Notes under the pieces: model-generated
What the model was told of the DNA's origin: nothing
What the model saw: only the letters and a program-made list of their open reading frames with translations
The model's database searches: none
UHGV virus genome: UHGV-1372970
Length of the DNA: 64,000 nt
DNA from: a virus
Direction: 5' to 3' (one strand)
Shown: piece by piece, positions 1 to 40,193 of the stretch
How positions within the stretch are numbered: the first letter of the stretch is position 1
Layout of the letters: each line of letters begins with the position of its first letter
Position numbers and translations under genes: made by a program

Positions 1-457
1 AATCCGGCATCGCTTCCTGACTGGCATAGATGGATGCCATAAACACCTCCTTCGACGAGCCGATCAGACGCTCTACCAGAGTCTGCGTCAGCGTGTCTTT
101 GCCCTTCGTCAGATCACCATCTTCACTGCGAACGATGAGGCGGTTCTTGAACTCCTTGTGAGCGCGATGGCGGATCACCGCATACGTTCGGCCCTCATCC
201 TCAATCGTCACAGCCACGCGGCAGTTCTTTGGTGTGGCGGAGTTCAGGACATCGTCACCCTTGTAGCCGGTCGCTGTCTCACCATACAGACACCACATTA
301 GCGCATTCATCAGCGTTGATTTGCCGGCGCCATTGCTGGCAGCGCTGGAGTCCGCTGAGTTGATGCCCTGCACCAGCACAAGACCGCGACTGTCGAGATC
401 AACGCTGGCGTCGGCGATGACCATGAAGTTTTCTACTTTCAGGTTCAGGAATTTCAT
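1..457 (-). CDS. sbcC: SbcC/Rad50-like ATPase, N-terminal part (gene continues beyond the window start)
   Basis: Reverse complement starts MKFLNLKVENFMVIADAS... and contains Walker A GAGKSTLMNAL. Its ATG overlaps the SbcD stop (ATGA). Confidence 0.75.
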   Translation of the reverse strand, partial: MKFLNLKVENFMVIADASVDLDSRGLVLVQGINSADSSAASNGAGKSTLMNALMWCLYGETATGYKGDDVLNSATPKNCRVAVTIEDEGRTYAVIRHRAHKEFKNRLIVRSEDGDLTKGKDTLTQTLVERLIGSSKEVFMASIYASQEAMPD

Positions 458-1539
458 TCAGAGGCCCCCGCGCTTTCCGCTTCTAAGAGAATTTCGCTAC
501 ACAGCGAGTCGAGTTTTGAGAGATCGAAACCGCCGTCAGTGTCGTGAACGACCTTGCAATAGGCGCTAATGGACTCAGACAGGCTGTCAATTTTGCTGGT
601 GGACTCAGTGCTGGCAGTGCCGGCCATCATTGATGCTTTTTTGATGAGGTTCGTCACAACGCCGGCAGCACCCAGCGTCGCCAATTGCTCTTTGATCTGG
701 ATGCCTTCGTTTTCATCCTCTATCACAGCGCGATAGCGAATGTAGTTGCCGCGGATCTCATCTTCAGTGACATCACCTTCGAGAGAGACGAACTTCGGTG
801 CTTTCGTTTCGTGATGAGTGAAAGAGGCATCCTCATTGACCAGCATGTAACCAGCCAACGTCCCTACGTCGCCCCAATTCTGGTGCATCAGAGCGCCAAC
901 GGATACAACACCAGGGATGATTTCTTTGTGGTTGTGGTAGTGACCAGACAGCACCAGACGGTAGCCCAGCTCTTTCAGGTCGTTAGCCTCAATTCCCACA
1001 TCAGGCATCGTCGGGATCGCCTTGTTAATTCCGGTGTGGATCACGATGTCGTGGATACCGTCGCCAGATTTTTCACGCAACGCTTTCATGTCGGCCAGAA
1101 GCTCAGCATGGCTGTTACGCCAGCTGATAAAGTGGACGGTCACGTCATCGATTTTGAGGCTTTGGGCAGGCCCACAAACAATATTGACGCCGATAGACTG
1201 CAATGACGCCGCAGCATTTGCGGAGAATACTGAGTCGTTTGTTTCCAGATCATGATTACCGGCCAGCATCCAGACTTCCAGGCCAATTTCGTTGATGATC
1301 TCTTTGTATGCTTCAGTGACAAAGTGAAGGACTGTCGGGGTGATAGAGCCGCGAGTGTGGAACGTGTCGCCAGCCACCAGCATGTATTTCGCGCCAGATG
1401 TTTTAATCGCTTTCGCCGCTTCGATGGTAGCTTCGAGCTGGATTTTGAGACGTGAATTTAAACCATTTACGCTGATCGTCGAAAAGGCTGACCAGCTATG
1501 ATAGTGCGGATCGGAGATCACACCGTATATCGTTTTCAT
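454..1539 (-). CDS. sbcD: SbcD/Mre11-like metallophosphoesterase nuclease
   Basis: Calcineurin-like phosphoesterase motifs (GDTFH, GNHD, HxH). Start follows CATGTGTTTTCC RBS context. Paired with the upstream SbcC-like gene. Confidence 0.8.
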   Translation of the reverse strand: MKTIYGVISDPHYHSWSAFSTISVNGLNSRLKIQLEATIEAAKAIKTSGAKYMLVAGDTFHTRGSITPTVLHFVTEAYKEIINEIGLEVWMLAGNHDLETNDSVFSANAAASLQSIGVNIVCGPAQSLKIDDVTVHFISWRNSHAELLADMKALREKSGDGIHDIVIHTGINKAIPTMPDVGIEANDLKELGYRLVLSGHYHNHKEIIPGVVSVGALMHQNWGDVGTLAGYMLVNEDASFTHHETKAPKFVSLEGDVTEDEIRGNYIRYRAVIEDENEGIQIKEQLATLGAAGVVTNLIKKASMMAGTASTESTSKIDSLSESISAYCKVVHDTDGGFDLSKLDSLCSEILLEAESAGASE

Positions 1540-1742
1540 GTGTTTTCCTGTTGTTGTTTTATTCGATGATAGAGTGGGTTAACAGGCCACCAAGCAGCTT
1601 CACAAGGCACATATTAAACACCAAATAATAAGTAATTACTTATTTAATTTTGATTATGCTGAAACACAAGAGGGTGTCAGACGCTTTCTAAGAGGCTGGT
1701 GGGCTAGATTTGAGTGAATGTGTGGCATATGGCTGAAAACCC

Positions 1743-1775
1743 CTCTGCGTCGCTCTGAGGGGCTTAAATTGGCGT
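1743..1775 (-). terminator. Rho-independent terminator after the 1775..2452 gene
   Basis: Minus-strand hairpin CCCCTCAGAGCGACGCAGAGGGG followed by TTTTCAG. Confidence 0.45.
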
Positions 1776-2452
1776 TATATCTTTGATTCGAAGCGACGTC
1801 TCAGTTCGTCGAGGCTAACAACGTTATCTGGCGGGGTAATGTCTTCCATCATCATGAACTCTTCATCAGTGTGATACTCCCAATCGTATTCGTATTTCAG
1901 ACTTTTGAGATAGATGGCCGTCAGCGTGCTGTCTTCCTTCAAAAAATGACCGTATGACTTTTTAATCACTGTTCTGACATCTTCTTGCTTTTTTCCGCCG
2001 ACGCACAGATGGTTGAACCTGGCGTGCTTCCTCAGCATATCCTCGACGGGACCTGAAAAGACTTTGGCGACACGAGCAAAACGGATTATCTCACCGTCTT
2101 CTGCACCAACCAGACAGACAATTGAGTTTTCACTGACGCGATTTACCCATGTCACACCGCTTCGCAACGTGTTGAAGTAGGCATCTTTCAATCCCAGGTA
2201 AGGCTTTCTAAACGAGATTAGCGGAACGTATCGAGCACAGGTGTTAATTTCGAACGAGGTGCCTTGCTTCAGTAGTGATGATCGGGTTTTGTAAATTGGG
2301 CAGGCTGTCTTTATGCCGCAAACGTCACACATGTCCTTTGATGCGACCAGTTTTGAATCAGGCTTGATGGTGTAAGCCCCATCCTCTAGCCTTCTGATGT
2401 AGCGTGACTGTTTGATATCCATTGTTATTGTGGCCTTGTACTTTTTTATCAC
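1775..2452 (-). CDS. hypothetical protein
   Basis: 225-aa ORF, no recognised motif. Confidence 0.5.
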   Translation of the reverse strand: MIKKYKATITMDIKQSRYIRRLEDGAYTIKPDSKLVASKDMCDVCGIKTACPIYKTRSSLLKQGTSFEINTCARYVPLISFRKPYLGLKDAYFNTLRSGVTWVNRVSENSIVCLVGAEDGEIIRFARVAKVFSGPVEDMLRKHARFNHLCVGGKKQEDVRTVIKKSYGHFLKEDSTLTAIYLKSLKYEYDWEYHTDEEFMMMEDITPPDNVVSLDELRRRFESKI

Positions 2453-2497
2453 ATTAAACCAAATTTCAGGCTGAAATAGAAAATCGCCTGAAAAAAG

Positions 2498-2578
2498 TTA
2501 TCCACATATCAACCGGATAGATCCCAATAAGTAAGATCATAATGAGATCATAACTAGATCCTAAACAGATCCCTGATC
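2498..2578. promoter_or_regulatory. origin-like region: consensus DnaA box TTATCCACA followed by six GATC sites in repeated AGATC(C/A) heptamers at ~11-bp spacing
   Basis: Read directly from sequence. This is the arrangement of P1-type oriR. A second near-consensus DnaA box (GTATCCACA) overlaps the repA ATG at 2733..2741. Confidence 0.6.
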
Positions 2579-2618
2579 GCTGAGAGCCGCGCCATTATTG
2601 GCCTGAGAGTATGTTCAC

Positions 2619-2721
2619 GTATGCTGTCGACGGTTTACTATATGCTGCGAGCGGTTTACTGTATGCTGTCACCAGCAAAGAACATGCTGTCAGCGGTAAG
2701 CCGTGTATGCTGTCAGCGGTA
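2619..2721. repeat. 5 iterons (ATGCTGTCAGCGG-like) with ~21-bp periodicity upstream of repA
   Basis: Copies at about 2621, 2642, 2663, 2684 and 2707. Confidence 0.8.
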
Positions 2722-2740
2722 GATCTGAAAAGGTATCCAC

Positions 2741-3874
2741 ATGTCCACAGCCAAGAAAAAAGGCAGCAAAAACATAGCGAAAGATTCCGAAATTGAGATC
2801 CTTGATGAAGATGCTCTGGACTCATCCACAGACCCAGATGACCTTGATGAAGGTTCTCTAAACCTTTACACAGGTGACCTGACCCCCAATAACAACAACA
2901 CTGTTCAGCCTATCGCGCTAATGCGGCTTGGTTTGTTTGTCCCGACACTGAAAGGCACAAGGAATAGTAAACGAAACAAGTCGAATGAGATAGACGCGTC
3001 GAAAGAGCTGGTTCAGCTGGAAGTCGCCCGCTCTGAGGGTTACGCCGACATCAAAATCACCGGCCCCAGACTGGATATGGATCACGACTTCAAAACATGG
3101 GTTGGGGTGGTTCGTTCTTTGGCCGAATATGGCGAGACCAGCGGACGCGTAGAGCTGAGCATTACGAAGTTTGCAAAGTTCTGTGGCTATCCTTCCTCTC
3201 AGATCCGCAAAACATTACGTGACAGGCTCACAAATAGCCTTCTTAAAATAATGCGGACGACGCTTTCCTTCCAGCGCACGTATGAAGAGAAGAACGTCGA
3301 CGGCTCGAATAAGATCTCGCTCCTGATGATGCACCTCATAAACAGCGTTGATTACAACGAGAAGAAAGACACCATCATTTTCCAGGCCGAGCCTAAGCTG
3401 TCAGAGCTGTATAGGTTCGACCACAAGGTTCTCCTGCAGTTAAAGGTCATCAACAAGCTTCCACGCAAGGAGACGGCCCAGGCGCTGTATACGTTCATAG
3501 AAAGCCTTCCAACAAAGCCAGCACCCATCTCTCTCGCGAGGCTTAGAGCAAGATTGAATCTGAGCACAAATAACGTGAGTTCCCAGAATCAGACTATCAG
3601 GAATGGCCTCAAGTCACTTCAGGAGCTTGGCTATCTCGACTATAGCGAAATAAAGCGCGGGCGCTCTGTCTATATCCAAATCCACAACCGAAATCCAAAA
3701 CTGAAAGTCACTGAAAGCAAGCCAGAGAAACTCCCCAAAGATAAGCCGCCAATCGAAGGTAATTCGGATACTAAGCAGAATCTTATCAATAAGATAGTTG
3801 AGCTTTCCAAAGACCTTACACCCGAGAATATTAAGCTTATCGAGATCCTAAACAACAGCCTGAAGCTTGTTTGA
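2741..3874 (+). CDS. repA: plasmid-type replication initiator (RepA-like), flanked by iterons
   Basis: 377-aa ORF sits exactly between the two iteron arrays. A DnaA box overlaps its start. Acidic N-terminus. Confidence 0.65.
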   Translation: MSTAKKKGSKNIAKDSEIEILDEDALDSSTDPDDLDEGSLNLYTGDLTPNNNNTVQPIALMRLGLFVPTLKGTRNSKRNKSNEIDASKELVQLEVARSEGYADIKITGPRLDMDHDFKTWVGVVRSLAEYGETSGRVELSITKFAKFCGYPSSQIRKTLRDRLTNSLLKIMRTTLSFQRTYEEKNVDGSNKISLLMMHLINSVDYNEKKDTIIFQAEPKLSELYRFDHKVLLQLKVINKLPRKETAQALYTFIESLPTKPAPISLARLRARLNLSTNNVSSQNQTIRNGLKSLQELGYLDYSEIKRGRSVYIQIHNRNPKLKVTESKPEKLPKDKPPIEGNSDTKQNLINKIVELSKDLTPENIKLIEILNNSLKLV

Positions 3875-3875
3875 T

Positions 3876-4136
3876 ATGCTGTCAGCGGCGTTGAGTATGC
3901 TGTCAGCGGCAAATTTGCTTTTAGGTATGCTATCAACGGTGGTATGTATGCTGTCAGCGGTACTCGTAATAATTTTATCGGTGAAGAGGGGAGGGGCTTT
4001 TGTCAGTTACCGGATTAAACGTATGCTGTCAGCGGTAGTTTTCTTTGAACATATGCTGCGAACGGTATTTGATATGCTGCCAGCGGCATCTGTATATGCT
4101 GGCAGCGGTGCTACAAGGCAAGTATGCTATGAGCGG
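3876..4136. repeat. 9 iterons (same 13-mer family) downstream of repA, an incA-like array
   Basis: Copies at about 3876, 3897, 3927, 3948, 4023, 4053, 4074, 4096 and 4124. Confidence 0.8.
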
Positions 4137-4139
4137 TAA

Positions 4140-4370
4140 TTAGGTGAATGATGCCAGCAGAGTATAAAGACTTTTTGACTTATGGCTTGGCTTGGTCTCC
4201 CCGTTCTCGATCATCTGCCATGAGTTGTATCTGTAGACAACTCGACAATCATCGCGGTCAAGGCGGACAGAATAATCAGCCGGACGGGTGAAGCCCTTCG
4301 AGCGCCAGTAGCCTCGGCTCTTTTCCATTTCCATGCTATTTGCTAAGTTCATGCCGTCACCTTTACACAT
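4140..4370 (-). CDS. hypothetical small protein
   Basis: ORF only. Confidence 0.35.
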   Translation of the reverse strand: MCKGDGMNLANSMEMEKSRGYWRSKGFTRPADYSVRLDRDDCRVVYRYNSWQMIENGETKPSHKSKSLYTLLASFT

Positions 4371-4696
4371 TCGTCAAACACATATCCAAAGTCATCATAC
4401 ATAACGCCGTAGCTGGTTTTTCTTATGAAATAAGCGGCGCCAGCATGGTATCCGGCCATGTCGCCTTTATGCTCAAATAAGACCGGTGAGCTGATCACTC
4501 TCTCCCCGATAACCGCGTAAAATTGCTGGCTATCGGCTGTCAGTATGGCTTCCGCCATCTGGCGAGGCTCACCAATCATCTGACCGTCTTTGAACTTTAA
4601 AATGCTCATCTGGCACTTCATGACCGCTTCCTCGCTACTAAATGCGTATGAGGAAAATAACGCCAGACCAGCGGCAACGAGTTTATTTACAGTCAA
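4349..4696 (-). CDS. hypothetical secreted protein (N-terminal signal peptide)
   Basis: MTVNKLVAAGLALFSSYAFS signal-like N-terminus. Confidence 0.45.
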   Translation of the reverse strand: MTVNKLVAAGLALFSSYAFSSEEAVMKCQMSILKFKDGQMIGEPRQMAEAILTADSQQFYAVIGERVISSPVLFEHKGDMAGYHAGAAYFIRKTSYGVMYDDFGYVFDECVKVTA

Positions 4697-4879
4697 AGCA
4701 GCTTCCCCATCGTGAGTGCGATGAATGCGCCTACAATGATGTCGACGATTCGTCCGTTAACAGGTTTCAGTGATTGTCGAAAACTGCCGATAAAGATGCT
4801 GTCAAAAAGTAAAAAAATTGATGTAGCTAAATACAGGAGCGGAATAATACACCTCATTAGATAAATGTCTACTTATTAT

Positions 4880-7844: not shown

Positions 7845-7928
7845 GTGTTTTCTCTTGTTTTAACAAACTTATGCATGATAGATAAGTGCTTACTTATCAT
7901 CAAGCTTTTTGTGAAAAGGAACTATCAA

Positions 7929-8647
7929 TGCAACAAAGTTTTAGACTTATGATCTTACTGTCCGAGTTGCGCTCAGCATTGCGGATTATGGAAGAGTTAG
8001 CTGAACAAGCTGAAAATAACATAGCTGACTTAATCGAAAAGGCCGAATTGCCTGGCGCCTTAGAGATTTCAGAATATGAAGATGAAGTAGAAGATGAAGA
8101 TGGGCAGGTTTATTGTACTAAAACAGAAGTTTACTCGTATGGGCCTTGTAGTAGCGTCTTTGAGGATGAGGTAGTGTTGGAGTATAAGCATCTGATTTCC
8201 AATTTAAATAGAAGATCAGTTTTTCTTACTATTTACGGGTTGTTTGAGCATCATATAAATAAACTCCTCCCTGATTTAATCAGTATTTCAGGTTATGCCG
8301 CTGCCGACAGAGATGCGATTTTAAAAAAAATAAATGATGCCTTTTTGTTCAGAGGGTTTGAGTTTTTACAGGGTGATATATATCACCTTTCTGGTTTGAG
8401 GAACTCTCTTGCTCACAATAATGGGGAGTTTGCCCATGTTGTAAGTGAACTTCAAAAAGGTATGGTCTTAGAACGAAAACAACAAAGGTCATGGGATTCT
8501 GTAAATTATTTATTGTCCAAGGATTCTGGTGTGACCTTAAATTGTTTTAATGAGGTTTCTTTGAGTGAGGGCTTTCTTAAATACACGATTAATGAGATAA
8601 ATCTTTACTTTGAACAAATGGATAAAGGTTTTAATTCACTCTGTTAA
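7929..8647 (+). CDS. HEPN-like (Rx4H, LRNSLAHNNG) accessory protein; candidate abortive-infection or exclusion factor
   Basis: AT-rich plus-strand gene inside a minus-strand block. Start MQQSF.. at 7929 has AAAGGAA 8 nt upstream. RNxxAH motif in the C-terminal half. Confidence 0.5.
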
Positions 8648-12088: not shown

Positions 12089-12541
12089 TCAAGATACATT
12101 TTTAGGGGCGTGAAACCGATCGACGCCTGTTTTCTCGTACTCTGAAATTGCCTTTTTTGAGGCCTGGACAATCATGTCTCGACGATGGCCGAGGGCGTTT
12201 ACAACGTGCTTGTAAAAATCTGCTTTGTACTTCGCATCGTCGTGTTTTTGACGGGCTGCAAGATACGCAGGATTCGACTTAACCTTGGATTCAATGGTCG
12301 ATTCACTGAGACGAACGCCGTCAAAACTAAGACCTGCTCGCGTCGTCGAATAGAGTCGCGCCTCGACTGATTCCAAATCACGCTTTGCAGTATTGGCGTC
12401 GCTTTCAGCCTCAGCTTGCTTGAATCCATAAATGGCAACAAGTTCAGGTTGACGACGCCAGACGGTATCGAGATCGTTCGTATCAAGCCTGATGTCGGCC
12501 ATCACTTCTTTGATGATTGCCTTATCCATTACCAGCTCCAA
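12089..12541 (-). CDS. hypothetical protein (true start may be MDKAII at 12529)
   Basis: ORF. Sits next to the SSB gene. Confidence 0.45.
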   Translation of the reverse strand: MELVMDKAIIKEVMADIRLDTNDLDTVWRRQPELVAIYGFKQAEAESDANTAKRDLESVEARLYSTTRAGLSFDGVRLSESTIESKVKSNPAYLAARQKHDDAKYKADFYKHVVNALGHRRDMIVQASKKAISEYEKTGVDRFHAPKNVS

Positions 12542-12693
12542 AACGCACTAATGAACAGCCCGACCGGCCAGAAGATGCAGCAGGTAATCTTCATTTCCAC
12601 CTCGTCGCTATTCGCTGCTTCAGACCACATTTTAGCAAAACCAATTCCGGCGATTAGGTACAGGAGAAGTGCTAGAATTACAAATAAATTCAT
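12532..12693 (-). CDS. small membrane protein (~53 aa)
   Basis: MNLFVILALLLYLIAGIGF... Stop overlaps the next ATG. Below the ORF-track size cutoff. Confidence 0.3.
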
Positions 12694-12828
12694 AGTAAAC
12701 CATTACTTATCATTTGGTATTTGATAATAGCACGAAAAAGCAGGGTGTTGATGCAAATATGGTTATCTGTAGATGTTTGATATAGGGTGTACAATAATCC
12801 AACATTACAGTCGCTTAAGGACGGTACG

Positions 12829-13224
12829 ATGGCTAATAGAATCCCTCTCGACCCAAAATTGCCTGTTAATTTCCATAACACTCCCAACGGAAATCGCTCA
12901 AAGAAACAGCTTGATGAGTGGTGGGATCACCCTTATGGGTTGATTCAGGAGGATGGTTCTATCATGGTTTTGTGTTTGAATGGTGGTTCCTGGGATCGTC
13001 CTTCTTTACTCGGTGTTGCGGAAAATCATGATGAGGCGTGCGAGTTGGCAGAGAAGGAGCAACGTAATTGGGTGAAAACTCGTGAGCAGCCTATCTTTAG
13101 GTACTCCACCAATCCGCCTTTTGAACTGATAAGAGACTCGCAACGACCAGATGAAGAACAGGTGATTGTTGCCTCCTTTGATACACTCGAAGAACTGCAT
13201 CAATACTTATCACAAGGAGATTAG
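12829..13224 (+). CDS. hypothetical protein (start MANRIPL)
   Basis: Plus-strand accessory gene. No recognised motif. Confidence 0.4.
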   Translation: MANRIPLDPKLPVNFHNTPNGNRSKKQLDEWWDHPYGLIQEDGSIMVLCLNGGSWDRPSLLGVAENHDEACELAEKEQRNWVKTREQPIFRYSTNPPFELIRDSQRPDEEQVIVASFDTLEELHQYLSQGD

Positions 13225-13301
13225 TAGCCGTCTATAAATGTTAGGTATATCTGATTGCCTGCTTTAAAACTCATACTCGTGTCACTTACGGCTATATATA
13301 G

Positions 13302-14591
13302 TTGTTTAATATAAGGAGTTGGTGCTTGTCATCTTGGGCTGAAATAAAAATTGACGGGTTTGTGATTGACGAATTTACTCATCATGGCTGTCATTATTGG
13401 TACTTCAAAAACTCTGAGCGGGTTAGAGACGTCACTGAAACAGCGTCTGAAGAGGATTCGGATGAGGTGAGCTGTTTTATAGGATACAGGACTAACGCAA
13501 AATCAATACGAAAACGCTTGGAACTGAGCGGCTTTAGCCGTCAGACGTTGGAGCAGGATTTTGAAACCAGTCTTGAAAACTTTATCGATGAGCTTGAGAG
13601 AGGACTCGGCGCATTACACGATAATCTTTCTGATGGCCGTAGTGCTTCCATGTATCTTGAAATAATTGATACCCAGAATCATATAATTCAAGCCATTCGG
13701 GGTACATCGCTTGACGAATGGCTTGAATTATTGCCGGTGGCGCGAAAGGAATATGTGAGACGACAGGGCGATTTGGCTTTTTCTAATGGCGCCCCTAAAT
13801 GGGTTATATGCGACAGCGCCCCAGCATTACTTAATGCAATGCTAAGTACGCCGATGATTTATTCAGATAACTATTTAAGTGCTGACTTTAATTTCCCGGC
13901 GTCAAACCCTGATTTCTTTTCTCTGGCGCTGCTAATGACGGTGCAGGATGATGCCGTTTGCGAGCTTAACCTGACAGAGCTTGTTCGTGCAGGTTATCTA
14001 GATGATTTTACGGATCTTGCTGAAATAGCCTTATCTGAAACTTCACCTTGTAAAGCTTGTCGCGAATCGCTTGCAGAGTTGGAACTGTTGGCAGGGGTAG
14101 ATCTATCAAACCCAACTCTCCAGAGGATGTGCTATGCCAGCATGATTACCTCAATGGAAACCTATATTGGTGACATTATTAAACGTGAAATCATGACGCG
14201 ACCTGCTTTGAAGGAGCGTTTTGTTGCGAGCTACGAAGAATATAGTGAAATGAAATTTCCACTTAGTCAGATTCACGTTCAGCTTCGTAAATTAGAAAAC
14301 CGGGTTCGTGATACTCTAGATGGCATTGCATTCCACAATTTGGGTAAAGCTAAGGAAATATTCCGTAATGTATTACTCGTAGAGTTTGATATAAACATAT
14401 TTGGAAAACTTTGCAAGGCAGTTGGTACTAGAAATGATATTGTTCATCGAAATGGGAAGGACAAAAAGGGAAATGCTGTCAGTGTTAATATTAATGATAT
14501 TCAGGCGCTTAGAGAGATGATTGTTGTGTTTATCAGCAACATTGATATGCAAGTGTTGGATGGCCTGGCCGCAGCTTGCTTAGAAGATTAG
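13302..14591 (+). CDS. large accessory protein with C-terminal HEPN-like Rx4H motif (GTRNDIVHRNG)
   Basis: Strong SD TAAGGAG at 13311. The likely start is TTG at 13326. Plus-strand gene inside a minus-strand block. Confidence 0.45.
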   Translation: MFNIRSWCLSSWAEIKIDGFVIDEFTHHGCHYWYFKNSERVRDVTETASEEDSDEVSCFIGYRTNAKSIRKRLELSGFSRQTLEQDFETSLENFIDELERGLGALHDNLSDGRSASMYLEIIDTQNHIIQAIRGTSLDEWLELLPVARKEYVRRQGDLAFSNGAPKWVICDSAPALLNAMLSTPMIYSDNYLSADFNFPASNPDFFSLALLMTVQDDAVCELNLTELVRAGYLDDFTDLAEIALSETSPCKACRESLAELELLAGVDLSNPTLQRMCYASMITSMETYIGDIIKREIMTRPALKERFVASYEEYSEMKFPLSQIHVQLRKLENRVRDTLDGIAFHNLGKAKEIFRNVLLVEFDINIFGKLCKAVGTRNDIVHRNGKDKKGNAVSVNINDIQALREMIVVFISNIDMQVLDGLAAACLED

Positions 14592-14770
14592 CCTTGAAAA
14601 ACATATCTGGCTTTATATCTTGGCTATAGGGAATTGATTCATGTGTGCTACTAATATCTGTTTTTTAAAACATTCTGATGTAACCGTATTGACTTCTGGC
14701 ACAGAGTCGTCTGTTAGACTTTACTCTGTGCCATAGGTGAGTTAACTCAGAACTGAGCTAATGTATTTTG

Positions 14771-15193
14771 TTACTGAAGGAGTGCGCCGATCAGTGTTTT
14801 TTTGCCGACAGTCCGACCAGTAATCGCTATACGCTGTGCTCTACGCTCGCGATAGTCGCTCACGCTGCTGGACTTTTCGACTTCCATAAACTCTCTGGCC
14901 ACCTTCATGATTAGAGAATCCCTGAATGCTTCGAACTCAGTCAGTTCCTTCTCGACATCCGTTGCTTTTGCCAGTTTGACTAGACGCCCGCGCACCTCGG
15001 AGTTATTTACCCGTTTCAACATCACTCTGGCGCAACTACGTGCCGCCTTATTCGCGCGTTCGCCGCCAAGAACGGCAACTTTCATCGCGAGGCGAACAGT
15101 GACAGGGCTATCGGCTATCTCCCAGAAAGCAGATTTGTTTACAGCAACGCTGGCCTTGTCGATAAACTCTTGTGACACGGTAACTTCTGTCAT
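14771..15193 (-). CDS. hypothetical protein
   Basis: ATGA overlap with the DnaE C-piece end. Confidence 0.45.
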   Translation of the reverse strand: MTEVTVSQEFIDKASVAVNKSAFWEIADSPVTVRLAMKVAVLGGERANKAARSCARVMLKRVNNSEVRGRLVKLAKATDVEKELTEFEAFRDSLIMKVAREFMEVEKSSSVSDYRERRAQRIAITGRTVGKKTLIGALLQ

Positions 15194-16420: not shown

Positions 16421-18793
16421 TTATTTTGAGGTGTCAAATTCAATAATGTCGGCATCGTCTTCCATCGCCTGGATGGCAGTTCGCTTTTTGCCGTCAGTGC
16501 ATTGGTGAAGCGCTGCGCGGTGAACAATGACAGTCTGGCCATCATCAGTTTGAACCTCCAGCCAACCCAGCTGCGCACGTTCTGAGAAGTCAGCACCGAT
16601 CTTTTTCATCTTCTCGATGTCTTTTTTACCGATCGCTTTCCTGACCATGTCAGCCTCGGCAAGTGAGAATCCAGCCAGAATCTGCGATGCCTTCATGATC
16701 TGTTCCTGATAGACCAATACGCCGTTTGTTTCTCTTGTCAGATCGTCAAGACTTGGGTGAAGCGATGAGGCATCTTCGTAACCACGCGCAACACTGACGT
16801 AGGTATCCATCATGCCTGACTGCATCGGGCCAGGTCGGTAGAGCGCTGTCGTGGCAACGGCCATCTCAAACGACATTGGCTTTATGCCGCTTCCCAAATT
16901 TTTAAGCAGGTTTCTCATGCCGCCAGACTCGAACTGAAATACGCCGGTTGTTTCGCCCAGCGCCATGCCGTCGAGTACGCGCTTGTCGTCCAGTGGGATC
17001 GCATCGAGGTTGACGTCTATACCCTCGTTCTCTTTGATGTAGCGCTTAGCCAGCGCCAGCAAATCGAGAGTAGCCAGCCCTAACACGTCCAGTTTGATAA
17101 GCCCCATGGATTCACAGAAACGCTTGTCAAACGCGATACAGCGCACACCGTTGCGTAATTCCACTGGTGTACGTTCTGTTAACGGAACGCCAGACACAAT
17201 TACCCCTGCAGCGTGTTTGCTGTAGCTGCGCATCAGTGACTGGAGTTTACAAGCCGCCTCGAACGCTTCTGGATTGGCTTTGGCGTATTTGTCCAGCGCC
17301 CCCAACTGCTCGCGTGTTTCTTCGAGAGATAAGCCCTCGTCATCGAATGGCTTCAGCTGCTTTGATACGGCCATATCTTCAGACGACACGCCATAAATTC
17401 GCGCCGTGTCACGCAGTGCCGAAGCCATGCCCAGATATGAGAAGTTTGGAATGCCGGCGACATAGTCTTCACCGTAATGCTCTTCAAGATATTCAAGAAC
17501 ACGCTGGCGCAGAGCCTGGCTGAAGTCCAGATCCGCATCGGGTAAGTCGAGACGCTCCGGGTTGATGAAACGCTCAAACAGCAATCCATGACGTAGAGGG
17601 TCAATATTGGTGATCCCAATAGCCCACGCAACCAATGAGCCTGCAGATGAGCCACGACCAGGGCCAACGGGAATATCTTCTTCTCGCGCCCACGTAAGTA
17701 AGTTCTCCACCATCAGGAAGTAACCGCAGAAACCCAGGCGCTTCAGCACAGATAACTCATAGCGGAGACGGTTGATATACATTGGGTACTGTTCGGTCGG
17801 TGGCTTCCATCCAAACTCAAGCGTCGTTAAGCGTCGTTTCAGGCCTTCAGCTGCCATGCGAGTTAGCTGTTCGCCTTCGTCTTCTGCCATTACTGGAAGA
17901 CTCACCGGCATTTCATGCCATCGCCAGCTGCACGCCGAGATGATCTCATCCTGAGTGTCGTTAACCATGGCGGAACTGACGCCCTCGACGTTCATGCGCT
18001 TGGCGAACTCCATCAGACGAACCAGCAAATGCTTGCGGTCCTGAATTGAGTTATCGCGTTGGTGAGGGATATGGAAGCGATAAGGCTGATCTGTTTTGAT
18101 GTTATTGATAACCATGTGCGCAATGTCGCGCAGGTCAGCATCCTCTTCCTTTTCGTAATATGCAGGATAGAACGCCACAGGAGCGATTTTAAGAGCCTGG
18201 GCGACGCTCATTGCCTTCTTGTTCAGCTGATCATACAAAGGCGTGGAAATGGGGTACACGACGCTATAGAAGTTGTCGCGACCACCCGCAGAAAGTAGGG
18301 CGGATAAAATACTGACGAAATCAGGCCGGTGGAAGATGCTGTCACGGTCAGAAGTCAGAAGTAAGATGTTACCTTTGGCATATGTCTCAACCAGCTGCCT
18401 CAGTGAGATCCGCGGTATAAAGTAAAACTGCTCGCGGCGGTTGCCCAGCGTCATCAGCTCGCAAAGGTCTTTATACCCTTCGTTGTTTTTGATCAGCGCA
18501 GTAAAGCTGTACTGGCGACCCATTTTGTAAACGGGTACTTCCTCACCTGACTCTTTTGCTTTTTTCACCAGTCCTTCATGGAATGGGTTATCACTAACGA
18601 TAAGACGAACGCCGCAGACGACGGCCATGTCGTCGCCGGCTGATTGCTGCAGCGGGATGATTGATGCCAGGTTCATTGTGTCAGCGCTAATGACGGCTGA
18701 GTAACCTAGCTCTTTTGCCACTTGCACGACACGACCGGCTTTTAACGCCGACTCCCCGAGGGAAAAGTCAGTGCGTACCATTAATGCTTTCAT
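16421..18793 (-). CDS. dnaE: DNA polymerase III alpha (DnaE), N-terminal piece (PHP, palm, thumb, most of fingers)
   Basis: PHP domain at the N-terminus. GSxxG, YQEQ and GKK motifs present. Confidence 0.85.
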   Translation of the reverse strand: MKALMVRTDFSLGESALKAGRVVQVAKELGYSAVISADTMNLASIIPLQQSAGDDMAVVCGVRLIVSDNPFHEGLVKKAKESGEEVPVYKMGRQYSFTALIKNNEGYKDLCELMTLGNRREQFYFIPRISLRQLVETYAKGNILLLTSDRDSIFHRPDFVSILSALLSAGGRDNFYSVVYPISTPLYDQLNKKAMSVAQALKIAPVAFYPAYYEKEEDADLRDIAHMVINNIKTDQPYRFHIPHQRDNSIQDRKHLLVRLMEFAKRMNVEGVSSAMVNDTQDEIISACSWRWHEMPVSLPVMAEDEGEQLTRMAAEGLKRRLTTLEFGWKPPTEQYPMYINRLRYELSVLKRLGFCGYFLMVENLLTWAREEDIPVGPGRGSSAGSLVAWAIGITNIDPLRHGLLFERFINPERLDLPDADLDFSQALRQRVLEYLEEHYGEDYVAGIPNFSYLGMASALRDTARIYGVSSEDMAVSKQLKPFDDEGLSLEETREQLGALDKYAKANPEAFEAACKLQSLMRSYSKHAAGVIVSGVPLTERTPVELRNGVRCIAFDKRFCESMGLIKLDVLGLATLDLLALAKRYIKENEGIDVNLDAIPLDDKRVLDGMALGETTGVFQFESGGMRNLLKNLGSGIKPMSFEMAVATTALYRPGPMQSGMMDTYVSVARGYEDASSLHPSLDDLTRETNGVLVYQEQIMKASQILAGFSLAEADMVRKAIGKKDIEKMKKIGADFSERAQLGWLEVQTDDGQTVIVHRAALHQCTDGKKRTAIQAMEDDADIIEFDTSK

Positions 18794-18975
18794 GTGCTTT
18801 CCTTCTTTGTTTTCTTTTTATTTTTGATGCTGTCGACCGGGAAACCAGCGAACTTTCCAAACATGGACTCAATGTTTTTACGAGCTTCATCATGACAGCG
18901 AGGCCTGTCACCACAACGGGCGCAGACCTCGCTTTTTTCTGACGCTGTTAGCGCCGAACCAAAACAACCTTTATC
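18790..18975 (-). CDS. small Cys-rich (CxxC...C..H) protein, translationally coupled between cobS and dnaE
   Basis: ATG overlaps the cobS stop and its stop overlaps the dnaE ATG. This is the C-terminal part of track ORF 18790..19182. Confidence 0.35.
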   Translation of the reverse strand, partial: DKGCFGSALTASEKSEVCARCGDRPRCHDEARKNIESMFGKFAGFPVDSIKNKKKTKKEST

Positions 18976-20209
18976 CATCACCGAATACACGCTGAGCCAT
19001 TTCTGTCGCCGCGAGAGCGCTGGTGGATGGCAGTTTGTTAATGAATGACTTGGTAACGCCTTTCCTGAAGTTGTGATGAGCCATGCCGAGCATCGCTGCA
19101 TTGCGCAGTTCACGAGGTCCGATTGGCTGGCTAATACTCCCCGCTTCATAGCCGTTACGAATACGAGTGGCAAAATCGACAAGCATAGTCGCGTGAGCTT
19201 TTGGTAGGCCCATCTGCTCCAGCATCAACCGCTCCTGCTCTACGCTCATGTACTTAACATGGGAGACGATGCCGAAGCGTGAGAAGTTCGCCGCATTCTG
19301 AATGTTGGTGCCTTGATACAGACCAGTCTCGTCACCAGAGCCGTTAGTGTTACCAGTTCCGATAAAGGCGAATCGTTTGTGAGGCTCAACGTAACGCCAT
19401 TCCGGTGTCGCTTCTTTGATGATCAGTGGCTCACCTTCCAGCACTGGCTGGTACACGCCGAGGATTTGCGGATAGGCAAAGTCGTACTCATCAGCCAGAT
19501 ATACCCAGCCGTTACGCATAGCGCTTGCCAGTAATCCCGGCTCGAAGTAAGTCGCCCCGTTCTTAACCAGAATCTGACCGCAAATATGCGACTCTTCAGT
19601 CGAGGCGGTGTGCTGGGAGCGAATGATGGGGCGATTCAGACGTGCGCAAATCTGAGTTGGAAGCGTACTCTTACCGGTTCCAGCGTGACCCCATAAATAG
19701 CCAGGCATACCCATTTCGATCATCATCAGGACATCTTTCAGCAGATCGATGTCACCGAATACATAGTCTGGTTTCGCCTTTGGCACGAACTCCGGGAATG
19801 GCTTGTTGATGTTGACGGTAATGCGAAGAGGTTCGCCAGACGCTGACACAAGCAGTTCCGGGTCAAGACCCATAACCTCATGCACAGCTACCTTTTCGAC
19901 CATGTAATCCTCGAAACCGGCATAACCCACAACCGCCGCTTCTTTTACACTCTTCTTCTCTGCCTCTTTCTCTTTCAGTTTTTTAGCTGCGGCAGCTGAC
20001 ATCGTTGGGGCTTCGGGGAACTGCGCCACATAAGCGCGGATCAGCTCTTCCGGTGTTTTCCCCTTATGCTCAGTCGGAATGGCGCTGCACTTCTTACGAA
20101 TGAAGTGAGAGCCTACATGATGCGTGTCACCCTCACACCACTTGCACAAAATTGGCTTTTCATCCGGCGAGTCTGGCGCTGACTCTTGGTTTTGCGATTT
20201 GACCGTCAT
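18971..20209 (-). CDS. cobS: MoxR/CobS-like AAA+ ATPase
   Basis: GHAGTGKSTL Walker A plus AAA+ body. Paired with the downstream vWA protein. Confidence 0.7.
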   Translation of the reverse strand: MTVKSQNQESAPDSPDEKPILCKWCEGDTHHVGSHFIRKKCSAIPTEHKGKTPEELIRAYVAQFPEAPTMSAAAAKKLKEKEAEKKSVKEAAVVGYAGFEDYMVEKVAVHEVMGLDPELLVSASGEPLRITVNINKPFPEFVPKAKPDYVFGDIDLLKDVLMMIEMGMPGYLWGHAGTGKSTLPTQICARLNRPIIRSQHTASTEESHICGQILVKNGATYFEPGLLASAMRNGWVYLADEYDFAYPQILGVYQPVLEGEPLIIKEATPEWRYVEPHKRFAFIGTGNTNGSGDETGLYQGTNIQNAANFSRFGIVSHVKYMSVEQERLMLEQMGLPKAHATMLVDFATRIRNGYEAGSISQPIGPRELRNAAMLGMAHHNFRKGVTKSFINKLPSTSALAATEMAQRVFGDG

Positions 20210-20305
20210 GTGTTTTCCTTTTGAATTGTTTTGGTGTGCTAATAATACTTATATGTAATAGGCAATGAAATAAGTATTTACTTATCTTTTTTGACCAAAG
20301 AAATG

Positions 20306-22270
20306 CTACGAAAGCAGGCGTTGCATTTGCTTAATCAGCGTCTCAGACAGCTCACCTACACTGCTCAGGCAGATGTTGTCACGATAGTAGTGGCGTGGCG
20401 CAGACGTCATTATGCCTATCCCCATTAGGTGAATATCCGACTCTTCCTCTATCTGCTTGGTAACTTGCTTCAGGTGCTCAGACAATCCGCGACCCTGTGC
20501 TTGTGGCATTCCGTCACTGAGTACGAGCATGATTTTCCGATCCTCCTGACGGCCAGAGAAGTGCTGCAATAAGGCTAAAATACTTTCACCATCGATATTC
20601 TCGGCCAGAACCATTGTTTTGGCGGTTGCGCCCATATTAATCATGGTTTGCTTACCTGACACTGGTGCTTCCCACGTCTTGATAATCGGCAGGAAAAGAG
20701 CCTCGGAGCGGTTAAACTCTCCTTTGCCTGGAACTGGTCGTGTGGAAGTGGTGAAGCCTGTAATCATTGTCTTAACGTTGATACGTGACAGAGCGTCAGC
20801 TAGTGTGTAAGCGGCAGCGCACGCTGTTTTTATCTTTGTGCCATTCATTGAGCCTGACATATCAATCACAATCTGGACACACGAGTTAACCGCGCGGCGA
20901 ATGTCCTTTTTACGGAAAACCCGGTCATCGTTAAGTGTGAGGCGATGAAGACTCGGCCCATGTAGTCTGCCTTTCCTCTGCCCAGGGATAAACTGAGTAC
21001 GGTTCTGACTGGCTATCGCTCGCTCAAGATCCTTAGCCAGCGTCGCGACAATATCGCCGGCTATCAAAGGCTTTATATGTTTCTCAAACATCGATTCGTG
21101 CGCAGGTAAAACGCGATAATTGCCTGGGTAGCCGTACATATCGAACTCTTTCACGCCACTGGATATTATGTTTTCGAAAAAACCGAAAGCATCTTCCATT
21201 TTACCCATGAAATCATAGGTTCTTTCATACGGGCGATAACCGGTCAAAAACTCGGACTCACTGGCTATTACGCTTTTCATCGCGCCTTCCATTGACATGT
21301 CATCGGAGCCTTCAGGCAGCTCCATCGACCCCAGACGGTCTAAATCTTCTTTGGATGGCTTTGGTATATCACCGGTTCCAGTCGACCCACCGCCACCGCC
21401 GCTCTCCGATTCGTCGTCTTCCGACTCGCCGTCGCTCTCAGACTCGCCATCACCACCTTCAGCTTTATCGTCTTCACTCGGCTCACACTCTCCGTCATCA
21501 GGCCTCGGGGCATCGTCTTCACCGTCACATTCGTCTTCGCTTGGCTCTGGAGTCGGCGTCGAGCTGTCAGGTTTTTTCTTTTCAGGTGGGGTTTCTTCGC
21601 TTTCTGACGGGTCGCTCTTATCCTCCATTGGCTTATCGACCAGCAGCTGAACGATTTTAGCGGCCACGGCCAAGCTGTCGTTGGTGGACTGGATATTGGG
21701 TATCATTTTATCAACGCCGTGTTTCAGCAAGAGAGAAACAGGCTCTTTGACGTGCTCCCAGCGGTCGGCCATATAGTCAGAAAACGGCAACTGGCCACTC
21801 CACGCACGAAGCACTGGAACAAGGTAAAACTCAAGAAACATGCGCGTAGGATCGCCTGATTTGTCGGCGATCGCTTCGCTTTCTTTAGGGGTGAATACCG
21901 TGTCGATGACATGGCGCTGAGTGTTAAGAAGGTTCGCTTTTGAGCCTTTAAACATCTCGCCCATTTTGCGTTCGATGAAGGTGTCTTCTACAGCATTCCA
22001 TACATAACCCTTCCCAACGACGCCATCGGTAAACAGCACGTGTGCAACCTCATGGTCGATAAATCCACGTATTGCCATGAGAAATTTATCGCTGGCGTCA
22101 TCGGGAATGGATGGTATGCAGATTAGAACTGGTTCGCCTTTGACGTTGTACTCGACATACGCTTTGGCGCCTCGCTCGATGACAGGGATGTCTCGGTCGA
22201 CCAGCATTGATACAATGTTCTTTATTGCCTCGCGGAACTTAATGACGTCTTTAACAGATGTTTTTTCCAT
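20306..22270 (-). CDS. cobT: CobT-like von Willebrand factor A protein with poly-acidic linker
   Basis: C-terminal vWA region and a long D/E/S-rich segment. Confidence 0.65.
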   Translation of the reverse strand: MEKTSVKDVIKFREAIKNIVSMLVDRDIPVIERGAKAYVEYNVKGEPVLICIPSIPDDASDKFLMAIRGFIDHEVAHVLFTDGVVGKGYVWNAVEDTFIERKMGEMFKGSKANLLNTQRHVIDTVFTPKESEAIADKSGDPTRMFLEFYLVPVLRAWSGQLPFSDYMADRWEHVKEPVSLLLKHGVDKMIPNIQSTNDSLAVAAKIVQLLVDKPMEDKSDPSESEETPPEKKKPDSSTPTPEPSEDECDGEDDAPRPDDGECEPSEDDKAEGGDGESESDGESEDDESESGGGGGSTGTGDIPKPSKEDLDRLGSMELPEGSDDMSMEGAMKSVIASESEFLTGYRPYERTYDFMGKMEDAFGFFENIISSGVKEFDMYGYPGNYRVLPAHESMFEKHIKPLIAGDIVATLAKDLERAIASQNRTQFIPGQRKGRLHGPSLHRLTLNDDRVFRKKDIRRAVNSCVQIVIDMSGSMNGTKIKTACAAAYTLADALSRINVKTMITGFTTSTRPVPGKGEFNRSEALFLPIIKTWEAPVSGKQTMINMGATAKTMVLAENIDGESILALLQHFSGRQEDRKIMLVLSDGMPQAQGRGLSEHLKQVTKQIEEESDIHLMGIGIMTSAPRHYYRDNICLSSVGELSETLIKQMQRLLS

Positions 22271-37675: not shown

Positions 37676-38050
37676 TTACTGCTCCAGCTCACGGCGAATT
37701 TGTTCGCCGCGCATCTCAGCTTCAGAGGCTGGTGTTTCGCGAAGTACGGCGATGGTTTCCGCGATCTGCTTAGGTGACTCGCTTGCCAGATTCATGATGG
37801 CGGCGCGAATGACGTCAGAGCGAGTAAAGCGGTTCCAGCGGTCGACGTTCTCCATGACAGAGATAAGGCTGATGAACTCGTCTTCGATGCTCATTGTGCG
37901 GCTTTTGATGCTGGACTTCCCGCGGGTAGGCCGACCCTGCGGGCGTACAGGTGAACGCATTGGCGAATTAGAGGCTTTTGCTTCAGTATCCTGAACTGGT
38001 TGCTCTTCAACAGTACGCTTGGCGAGATCGCCCATTTTTCCCATTTTCAT
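37676..38050 (-). CDS. small DNA-binding partner of ParA (ParG/ParB-like; basic disordered N-terminus, helical C-terminus)
   Basis: Directly downstream of parA. 124 aa. Confidence 0.45.
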   Translation of the reverse strand: MKMGKMGDLAKRTVEEQPVQDTEAKASNSPMRSPVRPQGRPTRGKSSIKSRTMSIEDEFISLISVMENVDRWNRFTRSDVIRAAIMNLASESPKQIAETIAVLRETPASEAEMRGEQIRRELEQ

Positions 38051-38054
38051 GACA

Positions 38055-38756
38055 CTAACCCTCTAAACTAATAAGATAATCAACTAACTCTTCAATTTCG
38101 TCTTCAGCTTTCTTGTCTCGTTCTTTGCCTTTCATTTCAAAAACAGAGCGACCAGCCTCTTCCGCATCGTCGTAGATATTTCGGTTGTAGATGTTAACTG
38201 GCACTGGCTCGATACCAAACGACTCGATAATTTCTTTTGATGCGAGTATGCGAGACACCTGGGATGGAAGCGATGGACATTGGTTCATCACTACGCGGAT
38301 CTGAACCTCTGGGTTCTCGGCTTTAACGCTCTCAAGGACCGGGTCGATGTCGCGCAAGGACTTCAGGTCCCTGCGTTTAGGCCGAAGAGGTATCAGTATG
38401 GCGTCAGCTATCAGCATGGCCTCACGCTGTATTTCAGAATCGAAACCGCCGGCGTCAACTACGATGTATTCATAACGACCGTTGAGCGATTGAAGGTGTT
38501 TGATTATTTCGTTGCCGACGAAGGCAAAAGGGAGCAGTTCGAGTTTCTTGTTGCCGCGACGATCCTCACACCAGGTTGTCGTAGTACGCTGGATGTCGAT
38601 ATCGGTGACGTGAACCTTCTTCTTCTTTTTGAGCTGCAAACAGGCTGCTACCTGCTGGGCGATGGTGGACTTACCCGGTCCGCCCTTCGTCCCACCAACT
38701 ATGATGAGTCTGGTATCCATTGTTTCGCCTTGTACTGTTTGTAGTTTTGAAAACAA
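38055..38756 (-). CDS. parA: ParA-family partition ATPase
   Basis: IIVGGTKGGPGKST deviant Walker A. Start may be MDTRL at 38721. Confidence 0.8.
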   Translation of the reverse strand: MFSKLQTVQGETMDTRLIIVGGTKGGPGKSTIAQQVAACLQLKKKKKVHVTDIDIQRTTTTWCEDRRGNKKLELLPFAFVGNEIIKHLQSLNGRYEYIVVDAGGFDSEIQREAMLIADAILIPLRPKRRDLKSLRDIDPVLESVKAENPEVQIRVVMNQCPSLPSQVSRILASKEIIESFGIEPVPVNIYNRNIYDDAEEAGRSVFEMKGKERDKKAEDEIEELVDYLISLEG

Positions 38757-38870
38757 AATGTTTTCTTATATGCCTTATAGCCTAAAGCTCACCGCTCAAA
38801 TATTCAACCAAATGTTGAGTTTTAGTGGTGGCAAGTATATAGTAAGATTTGTACGGAGAACTCCCGTACA
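38749..38870. promoter_or_regulatory. inverted repeats upstream of parA: GAAAACA-AAA-TGTTTTC and TGTACGG-N7-CCGTACA; candidate operator or centromere
   Basis: Read from sequence. Confidence 0.35.
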
Positions 38871-39027
38871 ATTTACTAGTGCAAACCGTAGAGTTTGCTA
38901 AAAAAGGAGTTTATCCAGTCGGCGCTTGTCGACTTGGTAAGATTCTGTTTTTTTAGGTATTCCCTAACCAGAACATTATCCACTCGTTAGCCAAGATGCA
39001 TTAGAAGCGGCGAGTAACGAGGTTGTT

Positions 39028-39300
39028 ATGCCCACTTTGAAAAAAGAACGTATCGATATACGACTGACCGATGAAGCTAAGTCAGTCATTGAGGAAGCGG
39101 CGATCTTGTCCAATCTAAGCGTGAGCCAGTTTGTGATAAGTAGCGCAGCAGAAAGAGCCACAGAGGTGATTGAGCAGCATCGCAGAATCGTTTTGTGCGA
39201 AGATTCCTGGAAATTGGTGATGGATGCCATCAACAACCCAGATCAACCGAATGACAGAATGAAACGAGCTGCTGAGCGCCTTAAAAATTTAAGGACCTGA
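39028..39300 (+). CDS. DUF1778/TacA-like ribbon-helix-helix antitoxin
   Basis: Resembles the DUF1778 antitoxin family. 4-nt gap to the downstream GNAT gene. Confidence 0.65.
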   Translation: MPTLKKERIDIRLTDEAKSVIEEAAILSNLSVSQFVISSAAERATEVIEQHRRIVLCEDSWKLVMDAINNPDQPNDRMKRAAERLKNLRT

Positions 39301-39304
39301 TAGC

Positions 39305-39823
39305 GTGAACACGTATGATATTGAACCAATACAGAAAGATTTTCCATACGACATTAGCTCCTTCGACTGCGGTAACGAGGCGCTAAATTTATTCCTGTCA
39401 GAACATCTTCAAAGACAGGACGAAAAGCAGATTCTGCGTGGATACGTATATCTTGAGTATGGATCTGGCTTACCAAAAGTGCTTGGCTTCTTTACTTTGG
39501 CCGGTGGGTCGTTTGAGAGAAGCCGATTTCCGTCCAAAAGCCAGCAGAAGAAAATTCCTTACACTAATACCCCATGCATAATCTTAGGGCGACTGGCTGT
39601 TGACAAAACAATCCAGCGACAAGGTATCGGGGAAATGCTGGTAGTCAAGGCTGCTAAAATAGTTCTCCAATCCGCTAACGCAATAGGTCTTCACGGTATG
39701 TTTGTTGATGCGAAAAATGATGATGCCTGTAAATTTTATGAGAATTTAGGGTTTACTAGGTTGATTGGTGATAATGAAAACCTATTCTTTTACCCTACAT
39801 CCAAAATTGCACAGCTCCCATAA
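39305..39823 (+). CDS. GNAT-family acetyltransferase toxin (TacT/AtaT-like)
   Basis: GNAT acetyl-CoA motif RQGIGEMLV. Typical antitoxin-then-toxin order. Confidence 0.65.
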   Translation: MNTYDIEPIQKDFPYDISSFDCGNEALNLFLSEHLQRQDEKQILRGYVYLEYGSGLPKVLGFFTLAGGSFERSRFPSKSQQKKIPYTNTPCIILGRLAVDKTIQRQGIGEMLVVKAAKIVLQSANAIGLHGMFVDAKNDDACKFYENLGFTRLIGDNENLFFYPTSKIAQLP

Positions 39824-39953
39824 AGTCTTTTAATTTACGACGGCTCTGGTGGCTACGAGTGAACAGTTTTACAAAATAATGAATTTACATCAAATTTACG
39901 TGCATTTCTTTGAAAGTAAAATTATCTAAAAGTGTTACTGAAAGGGGGCAACT

Positions 39954-40163: not shown

Positions 40164-40193
40164 AGATTAAACTTTCTATATTAATTCAATACA

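Follow-up and report, generated by a model that had tools for sequence, protein, structure and literature searches.

What is the locus at 2498–4137 of the virus genome UHGV-1372970, where two arrays of short direct repeats (iterons) stand on either side of a putative initiator gene, repA, close to phage replication genes? The stretch analysed, termed the window, is 64,000 nucleotides long, and an initial annotation made from its sequence had read the locus as a P1-type iteron replicon that keeps a prophage as a low-copy plasmid. We conclude with high confidence that the segment is a plasmid-prophage replicon, consisting of origin (oriR), repA and control locus, from an SSU5/pKPHS1-type Klebsiella phage-plasmid, and that it is a homolog of the P1 oriR and RepFIB replicons. 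The conclusion is carried by the anatomy of the sequence, the homology of both RepA and the origin DNA to P1, the selective conservation of the iterons and the plasmid state of close relatives.

Anatomy of the origin and the iteron arrays

Read from left to right, the locus has the same order of parts as the P1 replicon: a DnaA box, GATC heptamers, a GC-rich spacer, five iterons at ∼21-bp spacing, a second DnaA box, repA and downstream iterons (Table 1). Our reference was the annotated P1 record K02380, with the order DnaA site, Dam sites, incC (five iterons, with the repA promoter inside), repA and incA. In the left half of the origin the DnaA box, GGATAGATCC, the heptamers, CCCTGATCG and the spacer with GCCGCGCC and its GCCGCGC align with P1 oriR close to base for base. 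The two origins diverge at the start of the iterons, with the 21-bp frame retained (21/21/21/22 in P1 incC vs 21/21/21/23 in the window). GCCGCGC is invariant across the window, P1 and three relatives taken up below, namely the Klebsiella oxytoca plasmid pCAV1099-111, the Klebsiella phage pJN2-26 and the Escherichia coli element PhiR41_1. Every element listed by the initial annotation was found where it had been placed, and its term P1-type iteron replicon is upheld by the layout, by the RepA homology and by this alignment with P1 oriR DNA.

DnaA boxes lie at both edges of the origin, at 2498 and 2733. The left box, TTATCCACA, is the consensus box that had been noted at the start of the origin; it is kept in pCAV1099-111, and pKPHS1-type relatives have two tandem boxes at the same position. 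The right box, GTATCCACA, does overlap the repA ATG as had been proposed and is near-consensus, with eight of nine positions matching. Its region, AAGGTRTCCACATGYCCACA, is kept in four of four aligned subgroup members, and together with the left box region it makes up a 21-nt direct repeat (86% identical).

The heptamer stretch is the sole spot in the window with at least four GATC per 70 bp. It holds six within 60 bp, starting at 2520, 2535, 2546, 2557, 2568 and 2575 (spacing 15/11/11/11/7), and the local GC minimum of 0.375 coincides with it. Six sites in AGATC(C/A) heptamers at ∼11-bp spacing had been claimed; the six sites stand, but five of them are in such heptamers, the sixth being TGATCG, and the first interval is 15 bp. 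A 12-nt exact repeat, AGATCCTAAACA, occurs both in the origin heptamers and at the 3′ end of repA, with chance occurrence estimated at ∼0.1.

The origin iterons start at 2620, 2641, 2662, 2683 and 2706 and the downstream iterons at 3875, 3896, 3926, 3947, 4022, 4052, 4073, 4095 and 4123, all on the + strand; the 3′ half of the third origin iteron is degenerate. The counts and positions given by the initial annotation are right, but its unit of 13 bp is too short, the informative core of the 14 copies in an information profile being ∼16 bp, (R)TATGCTGTCAGCGGT. At two mismatches or fewer the 15-mer TATGCTGTCAGCGGT has 12 matches, every one within the replicon arrays, against 0.15 expected, and none of 100 shuffled sequences reaches 12; a looser 13-mer has 40 matches vs 14.9 expected. 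The repeats are therefore not part of a larger dispersed repeat, the case that had been named as fatal to a replication role, all good copies being confined to the two arrays beside repA. A palindrome within the iteron, GCTGTCAGC, has 4-bp arms and is too short for interpretation. The spacings are mostly near multiples of 10.5 bp, which would set most iterons on one face of the helix.

Constraint was tested in a four-way alignment of the window, pCAV1099-111, pJN2-26 and PhiR41_1. Invariant columns make up 81% of the iterons vs 15% of the inter-iteron spacers, the pattern expected of protein-binding sites. The comparison was widened to 68 IMG/VR contigs whose RepA is 79–87% identical to that of the window; these relatives were retrieved by protein guidance, and a strict two-iteron pattern scan of viral contigs gave two loci. 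Six clustered GATC are present in 67 of the 68. The origin frame of 21/21/21/23 with five slots is found in all of them, some slots being degenerate, and the downstream iterons number 8–12, at variable spacing and always in the orientation of repA. The five of the origin is thus a fixed property and the nine downstream one value in a range of 8–12, so that in the 5-plus-9 layout said to mirror incC-repA-incA of P1 the five is exact but the nine is not special.

The downstream array has grown by duplication, as is shown by an internal duplicate of 66 nt (3895–3960 and 4021–4086). Its position after repA is that of P1 incA, and by analogy it would have a control function. An open reading frame called mechanically over it (3867–4139) was rejected as a gene, the spacings of the relatives (76, 85, 87 and 176 bp, among others) breaking the frame. 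The 75-bp gap of the array harbours a promoter-like sequence, TTGTCA-16-TATGCT (9/12; 4000–4027, + strand), directed away from repA and with the start of an iteron as its −10 element; the count of such promoter-like sites is no higher than in shuffled sequence.

RepA and the family of replicons

The product of repA matches Pfam Rep3_N (PF01051, WH1; 39 bits vs a cut-off of 22.4, E = 1.3e-9) and phrog_775 (E = 5e-131). It is 46% identical to P1 RepA, residues 46–325 aligning with 20–286 of P1 RepA, close to its full length (pairwise E = 5e-88, tblastn E = 3e-69), and P7 RepA is likewise 46% identical. Absence of RepA or Rep_3 homology, the other result that had been named as fatal, was thus not what we found. 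The identity is 94% to RepB of pCAV1099-111, 81–86% to RepB of ∼110-kb Klebsiella and E. coli phage-plasmids, ∼53–55% to RepFIB initiators and 53% to SSU5 RepA. Kinship with P1 RepA is therefore true, but the RepFIB initiators of IncF plasmids (∼55%) are closer than P1. A search of NCBIfam gave no family for RepA, and a sequence search of the PDB gave no match even at E ≤ 10.

An AlphaFold2 model built on 43 homologs has a core (∼80–320) at a predicted local distance difference test score of 80–93, disordered segments at 1–58 and in a linker (321–341), and a confident C-terminal helical hairpin (343–376). In the PDB, Foldseek matches the model to RctB domains 2–3 (7e-7), to RepE, both as a dimer with operator DNA (2e-5) and as a monomer with iteron DNA (8e-3), and to a Rep WH1 domain; the predicted fold is that of an iteron initiator with two winged helices (WH1–WH2). 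The best structural match to the predicted core, Vibrio cholerae RctB, acts at ori2, an iteron origin tied to Dam methylation and SeqA (PMC6090056). RctB has no sequence similarity to RepA detectable in the PDB sequence search; it is a much larger protein with extra domains, and in ori2 GATC lies inside the iterons and control is exerted via 39-mers.

Compared with P1 RepA, the window protein has ∼26 extra N-terminal residues and a C-terminal tail of 52 residues. The tail is common to the family and among the aligned homologs is absent solely in P1 RepA. In the acidic N-terminal region there is an insert of 14 residues, derived from a 42-bp in-frame tandem duplication (2800–2831 and 2842–2873) and predicted to be disordered; among the aligned sequences only pCAV1099-111 has it, less three residues. 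Other differences from P1 concern the iteron itself (GATGTGTGCTGGAGGGAAA in P1, TATGCTGTCAGCGGT in the window), the right DnaA box, which in the window is fused to the ATG with a leader of 20 bp vs 56 bp in P1, and the partition genes: P1 has parA-parB-parS directly after incA, whereas the par genes of the window are 34 kb off and of the small ParA type. The phages differ as well, that of the window being an SSU5-like siphovirus and P1 of the myovirus type.

SSU5 and the RepFIB replicon of an IncF plasmid follow the same origin grammar, which makes the architecture a general trait of the family. RepFIB (IncF plasmids, P307/F type) has the characterized initiator closest in sequence, shares the C-terminal tail with its short conserved helix, and has a GATC cluster upstream and iterons flanking repA on both sides. 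It differs in its ATAAACTGTAG-type iteron, in the mixed orientation of its downstream iterons and in having conjugative plasmids, not a phage, as its carriers; plasmid records with such initiators number more than 5000. Salmonella phage SSU5 and the pHCM2 type share the grammar of GATC heptamers and iterons and, in SSU5, the genes on either side, with an SbcCD-like nuclease and a phrog_2105 gene upstream and a Cra homolog downstream. The SSU5 iteron is CCACTRTAGNGAG, its downstream iterons are in both orientations, and its origin module is duplicated upstream of repA. The two origin-like modules stand in tandem, a distal one (2260–2470) that has kept six GATC and a proximal one (2620–2880) in which most heptamers have decayed to AGAACC or AGACCC.

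Closest of the named groups is IncpKPHS1 or ‘IncFIB(pKPHS1)’ (pKPHS1, pJN2-26, ST13-OXA48phi12.3), together with E. coli PhiR41_1. These have RepA 81–86% identical to that of the window, the five-slot origin array, six GATC, the box on the ATG and an all-direct control array, and the iteron consensus of pJN2-26 and PhiR41_1 is TATGCTGTCAGCGGT as in the window. They differ in how the control array is laid out and in the spacers between iterons, and lack the 14-residue insert of RepA. IncpKPHS1 is defined by repA >96% identical in nucleotides to that of pKPHS1 (Wang et al. 2019, PMC6735626). The window repA is ∼78% identical to that of a listed member, CP015755, below the >96% criterion, and we therefore place the window in a sister lineage to IncpKPHS1, typified by pCAV1099-111; the closest repA DNA is that of K. 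oxytoca and Klebsiella michiganensis plasmids (90–92%).

Plasmid state, mode of operation and alternatives

pCAV1099-111 is a circular plasmid of 111 kb, and 63 kb of it are collinear with the window in the opposite orientation, at 87–98% identity. Among its genes are those for terminase, portal, capsid, tape-measure and tail proteins, as well as for a DnaB-like helicase, a primase, a ligase and a ribonucleotide reductase, and it is an SSU5/pKPHS1-type phage-plasmid. Through this collinearity the window is linked to what characterizes the SSU5 supercommunity, a circle of ∼100–115 kb with siphovirus structural genes and plasmid replication and partition genes, and its RepA is 53% identical to that of SSU5; judged by sequence, the parent element is a ∼110-kb Klebsiella phage-plasmid. 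Plasmid records that match the replicon region number 317, of which 309 are non-mobilizable; six Klebsiella ‘phage’ records match it as well. Plasmid maintenance as initially proposed thus gains support from the collinearity with a circular plasmid, and also from the ParA-type ATPase with its partner and the TacA/GNAT pair in the window. Cyrano, an SSU5-like relative, has a copy number of ∼5.5 per cell (PMC9928086), and phage-plasmids of the SSU5 supercommunity type as IncFIB (PMC7969092).

By analogy with P1 and other Rep_3 systems, replication may proceed as follows. DnaK, DnaJ and GrpE would release RepA monomers from inactive dimers, and the monomers would bind the five helically phased origin iterons while host DnaA occupies the boxes at either end of the origin. 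RepA and DnaA together would then open the adjacent AT-rich heptamer stretch for loading of DnaB. Firing would require fully Dam-methylated heptamers, and SeqA would sequester the hemimethylated heptamers after initiation, blocking immediate re-initiation. RepA on the origin iterons would repress its own promoter, and the nine downstream iterons would titrate RepA and pair, in cis and in trans, with those of the origin (handcuffing), which would keep the element at a few copies per chromosome. As P1, SSU5 and RepFIB have other iterons, the replicon is predicted to be compatible with them, and since it shares the iteron of pKPHS1-type elements it is predicted to be incompatible with those. In the part of pCAV1099-111 that has no counterpart in the window there is a gene for a phage N6-adenine methyltransferase (7921–8532), which, if it methylates GATC, could serve the Dam sites of the origin independently of the host.

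Several points weigh against reading the locus as a replicon working in the manner of P1. Function, that is autonomous replication, dependence on Dam, DnaA and chaperones, autoregulation and handcuffing, is carried over from the systems just named. P1 incA has three forward and six reverse iterons and the control array here is all-direct; P1 has 2 + 3 DnaA boxes and the window one consensus box with degenerate copies; and the disordered N-terminal extension and C-terminal hairpin go beyond P1 RepA, such that regulation may differ in detail. A sigma-70 scan upstream of repA gave no promoter at 9/12, and a candidate found by manual reading, TTCACG-16-TACTAT (8/12, 2614–2641), is not conserved in pKPHS1-type relatives. 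Further manual candidates at 7–8/12, likewise not conserved, were dropped. With only 20 bp of leader between the last iteron and the repA ATG, the promoter must overlap or precede the iterons. An Rfam scan of 1700–4800 at E ≤ 1 gave no match, leaving an antisense-RNA control element of a known family unsupported.

The place of the replicon among phage replication and recombination genes (the SbcD-like and polymerase III alpha-like genes of Table 1; DnaB-like helicase, primase and ligase in the collinear relative) would also suit a lytic (vegetative) origin, at which RepA recruits the helicase, primase and polymerase encoded nearby by the phage. We consider this very unlikely in view of the copy-limiting design, with a large control iteron array after repA, and of the homologous P1 RepA, whose role is in plasmid rather than lytic replication, P1 using oriL/repL for the latter (PMC6906374); thousands of IncF plasmids that are not phages also rely on this replicon family. 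A conserved but inactive relic, with maintenance by another replicon beyond the window, is what the ∼47 kb of the element outside the window and the borrowed account of function could allow. It appears highly improbable: repA is intact and the iterons are under selective constraint, pCAV1099-111, which is complete and the closest relative, has one MOB-suite replicon cluster and no second gene annotated as an initiator, and IncpKPHS1 plasmids are reported to carry a single repA (PMC6735626). We give practically no credence to the direct repeats being attL and attR of an integrated prophage, although GenBank record MZ779062 (pJN2-26) labels 20-bp repeats flanking repB in this way. Those 20-mers are two of 13–14 iteron copies and flank one gene rather than a prophage, the elements are circular plasmids, the tyrosine recombinase is ∼19 kb away, and among the records examined no chromosomal integrants with recombination junctions at the repeats were seen. 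The attL/attR annotation of pJN2-26 is accordingly rejected, the repeats being iterons.

Within the preferred reading, that of a plasmid replicon, there is room for a more particular view, in which the subgroup is a regulatory variant of the P1 design: DnaA at the box fused to the ATG would gate RepA synthesis, and duplications and deletions in the all-direct control array of 8–12 copies would adjust copy number. The right box is fused to the repA Shine-Dalgarno sequence and ATG, with AAGGTRTCCACATG kept in every member examined, so host DnaA occupancy could directly gate RepA synthesis. To our knowledge neither such gating nor an expanding and contracting all-direct control array has been described for P1. 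We regard this view as doubtful.

Neighbouring genes and database records

The initial annotation had adduced ParA and its partner, a toxin-antitoxin pair and a Cre-sized recombinase as signs of plasmid life. All are present (Table 1), but the par genes are 34 kb from the replicon and the recombinase is not Cre-like; homology of the 344-residue protein to Cre was rejected for lack of similarity (E = 1.1). The start of parA is probably the ATG near 38720, as in pCAV1099-111. Its presumed partner has no Pfam match and falls in phrog_5111, a family without assigned function, and no convincing centromere-like repeats were seen near parA. The TacA/GNAT pair lies within a segment (38772–40197) without an aligning counterpart in pCAV1099-111, where a HEPN-domain gene takes the corresponding position; the difference suggests an exchange of addiction or defence cargo beside parA.

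Table 1. Positions of replicon elements and other genes in the window
Feature	Position	Strand	Basis or remark
SbcD-like phosphoesterase	454–1539		Phage replication/recombination neighbour
215-residue protein, divergent from origin	1775–2422	−	phrog_2105; no Pfam match
Left DnaA box TTATCCACA	2498–2506	+	Sole perfect copy in 64 kb
Left DnaA box region with degenerate tandem copy TATCAACC	2498–2514	+	Aligns with annotated tandem DnaA binding site of P1 oriR
AT-rich GATC-heptamer stretch, six Dam sites; putative DNA-unwinding and SeqA-sequestration region	2515–2579	+	Aligns with annotated P1 Dam methylation sites
GC-rich spacer from heptamers to iterons, with GCCGCGCC (2586–2593)	2580–2619	+	Alignment
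Origin iteron array (incC-like), five direct TATGCTGTCAGCGGT copies	2620–2720	+	Spacing 21/21/21/23 bp
Right DnaA box GTATCCACA (8/9)	2733–2741	+	Final A is the A of the repA ATG
Right DnaA box region, GTATCCACA then tandem TGTCCACA	2733–2749	+	Motif scan
repA, 377 residues, predicted iteron-binding initiator of P1 RepA/RepFIB family	2741–3874	+	Pfam Rep3_N, phrog_775
Control iteron array (incA-like), nine direct copies	3875–4137	+	Spacings 21/30/21/75/30/21/22/28
Cra homolog, 76 residues, first gene after control iterons	4140–4370	−	31% identity to P1 Cra, E = 8e-10
DNA polymerase III (Pol III) alpha-like protein, 790 residues	16421–18793	−	Domain search
Tyrosine recombinase, 344 residues	23170–24204	−	Pfam Phage_integrase domain
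124-residue parA partner, presumed centromere-binding protein	37676–38050	−	Position directly downstream of parA only
ParA-type partition ATPase (small, Ib-like)	38055–38756	−	Pfam AAA_31, MipZ, CbiA, ParA; phrog_164 ParA-like partition protein, E = 6e-48
TacA antitoxin (39028–39300) and GNAT acetyltransferase toxin (39305–39823)	39028–39823	+	Pfam TacA1 E = 1.9e-25, GNAT domains

P1 Cra is a ‘cre-associated’ protein without assigned function. Its homolog adjoins repA in the window, where the single tyrosine recombinase tested is not Cre-like. On the other side of the origin, a gene of the size of that for the 215-residue protein stands at the same position in SSU5, pJN2-26, PhiR41_1 and pCAV1099-111. 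Between the replicon and the recombinase, 16421–22270 (− strand) holds in a row the genes for the Pol III alpha-like protein (790 residues), an AAA_5 ATPase (412 residues) and a CobT/VWA protein (654 residues), whose counterparts in pCAV1099-111 are annotated merely as ‘AAA family ATPase’ and hypothetical protein. A second window-specific segment (12530–14828) contains an open reading frame (13302–14591, + strand) for 429 residues with HEPN/Toprim N-terminal and RiboL-PSP-HEPN domains, a candidate defence gene.

In public records of this replicon group, iterons have been mistaken for att sites, and the start of repA has been placed within an iteron. In MZ779062 the ‘attR’ and ‘attL’ features are at 2753–2772 and 4023–4042, and the repB coding sequence (2756–3973) starts inside the first iteron. 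Many database RepB entries of 403–405 residues begin with ‘MLSAV...’, the translated iteron ATGCTGTCAGCGGT, in clusters of 100–667 member sequences. The literature that we found on the iterons and RepA of this replicon is one paper, which reports no known RepA domain and only four downstream iterons (PMC6735626).

The replicon is a well-formed, ordinary member of the very common and well-understood P1/RepFIB family, and the traits of its subgroup, an all-direct control array of variable number and the box on the ATG, are modest variations. The family link is already implicit in the typing of such elements as IncFIB (PMC7969092) and in the proposal of IncpKPHS1 as an incompatibility (Inc) group (PMC6735626). 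The value of the present map lies mainly in annotation, typing and construction of mini-replicons, with little conceptual addition. Hundreds of clinical phage-plasmids of Klebsiella and E. coli have a replicon of this group, some of them together with resistance genes; for these, a P1-like origin map would delimit a minimal replicon at ∼2450–4150 and, by analogy, predicts incompatibility with the pKPHS1 type and dependence on Dam, DnaA and chaperones.

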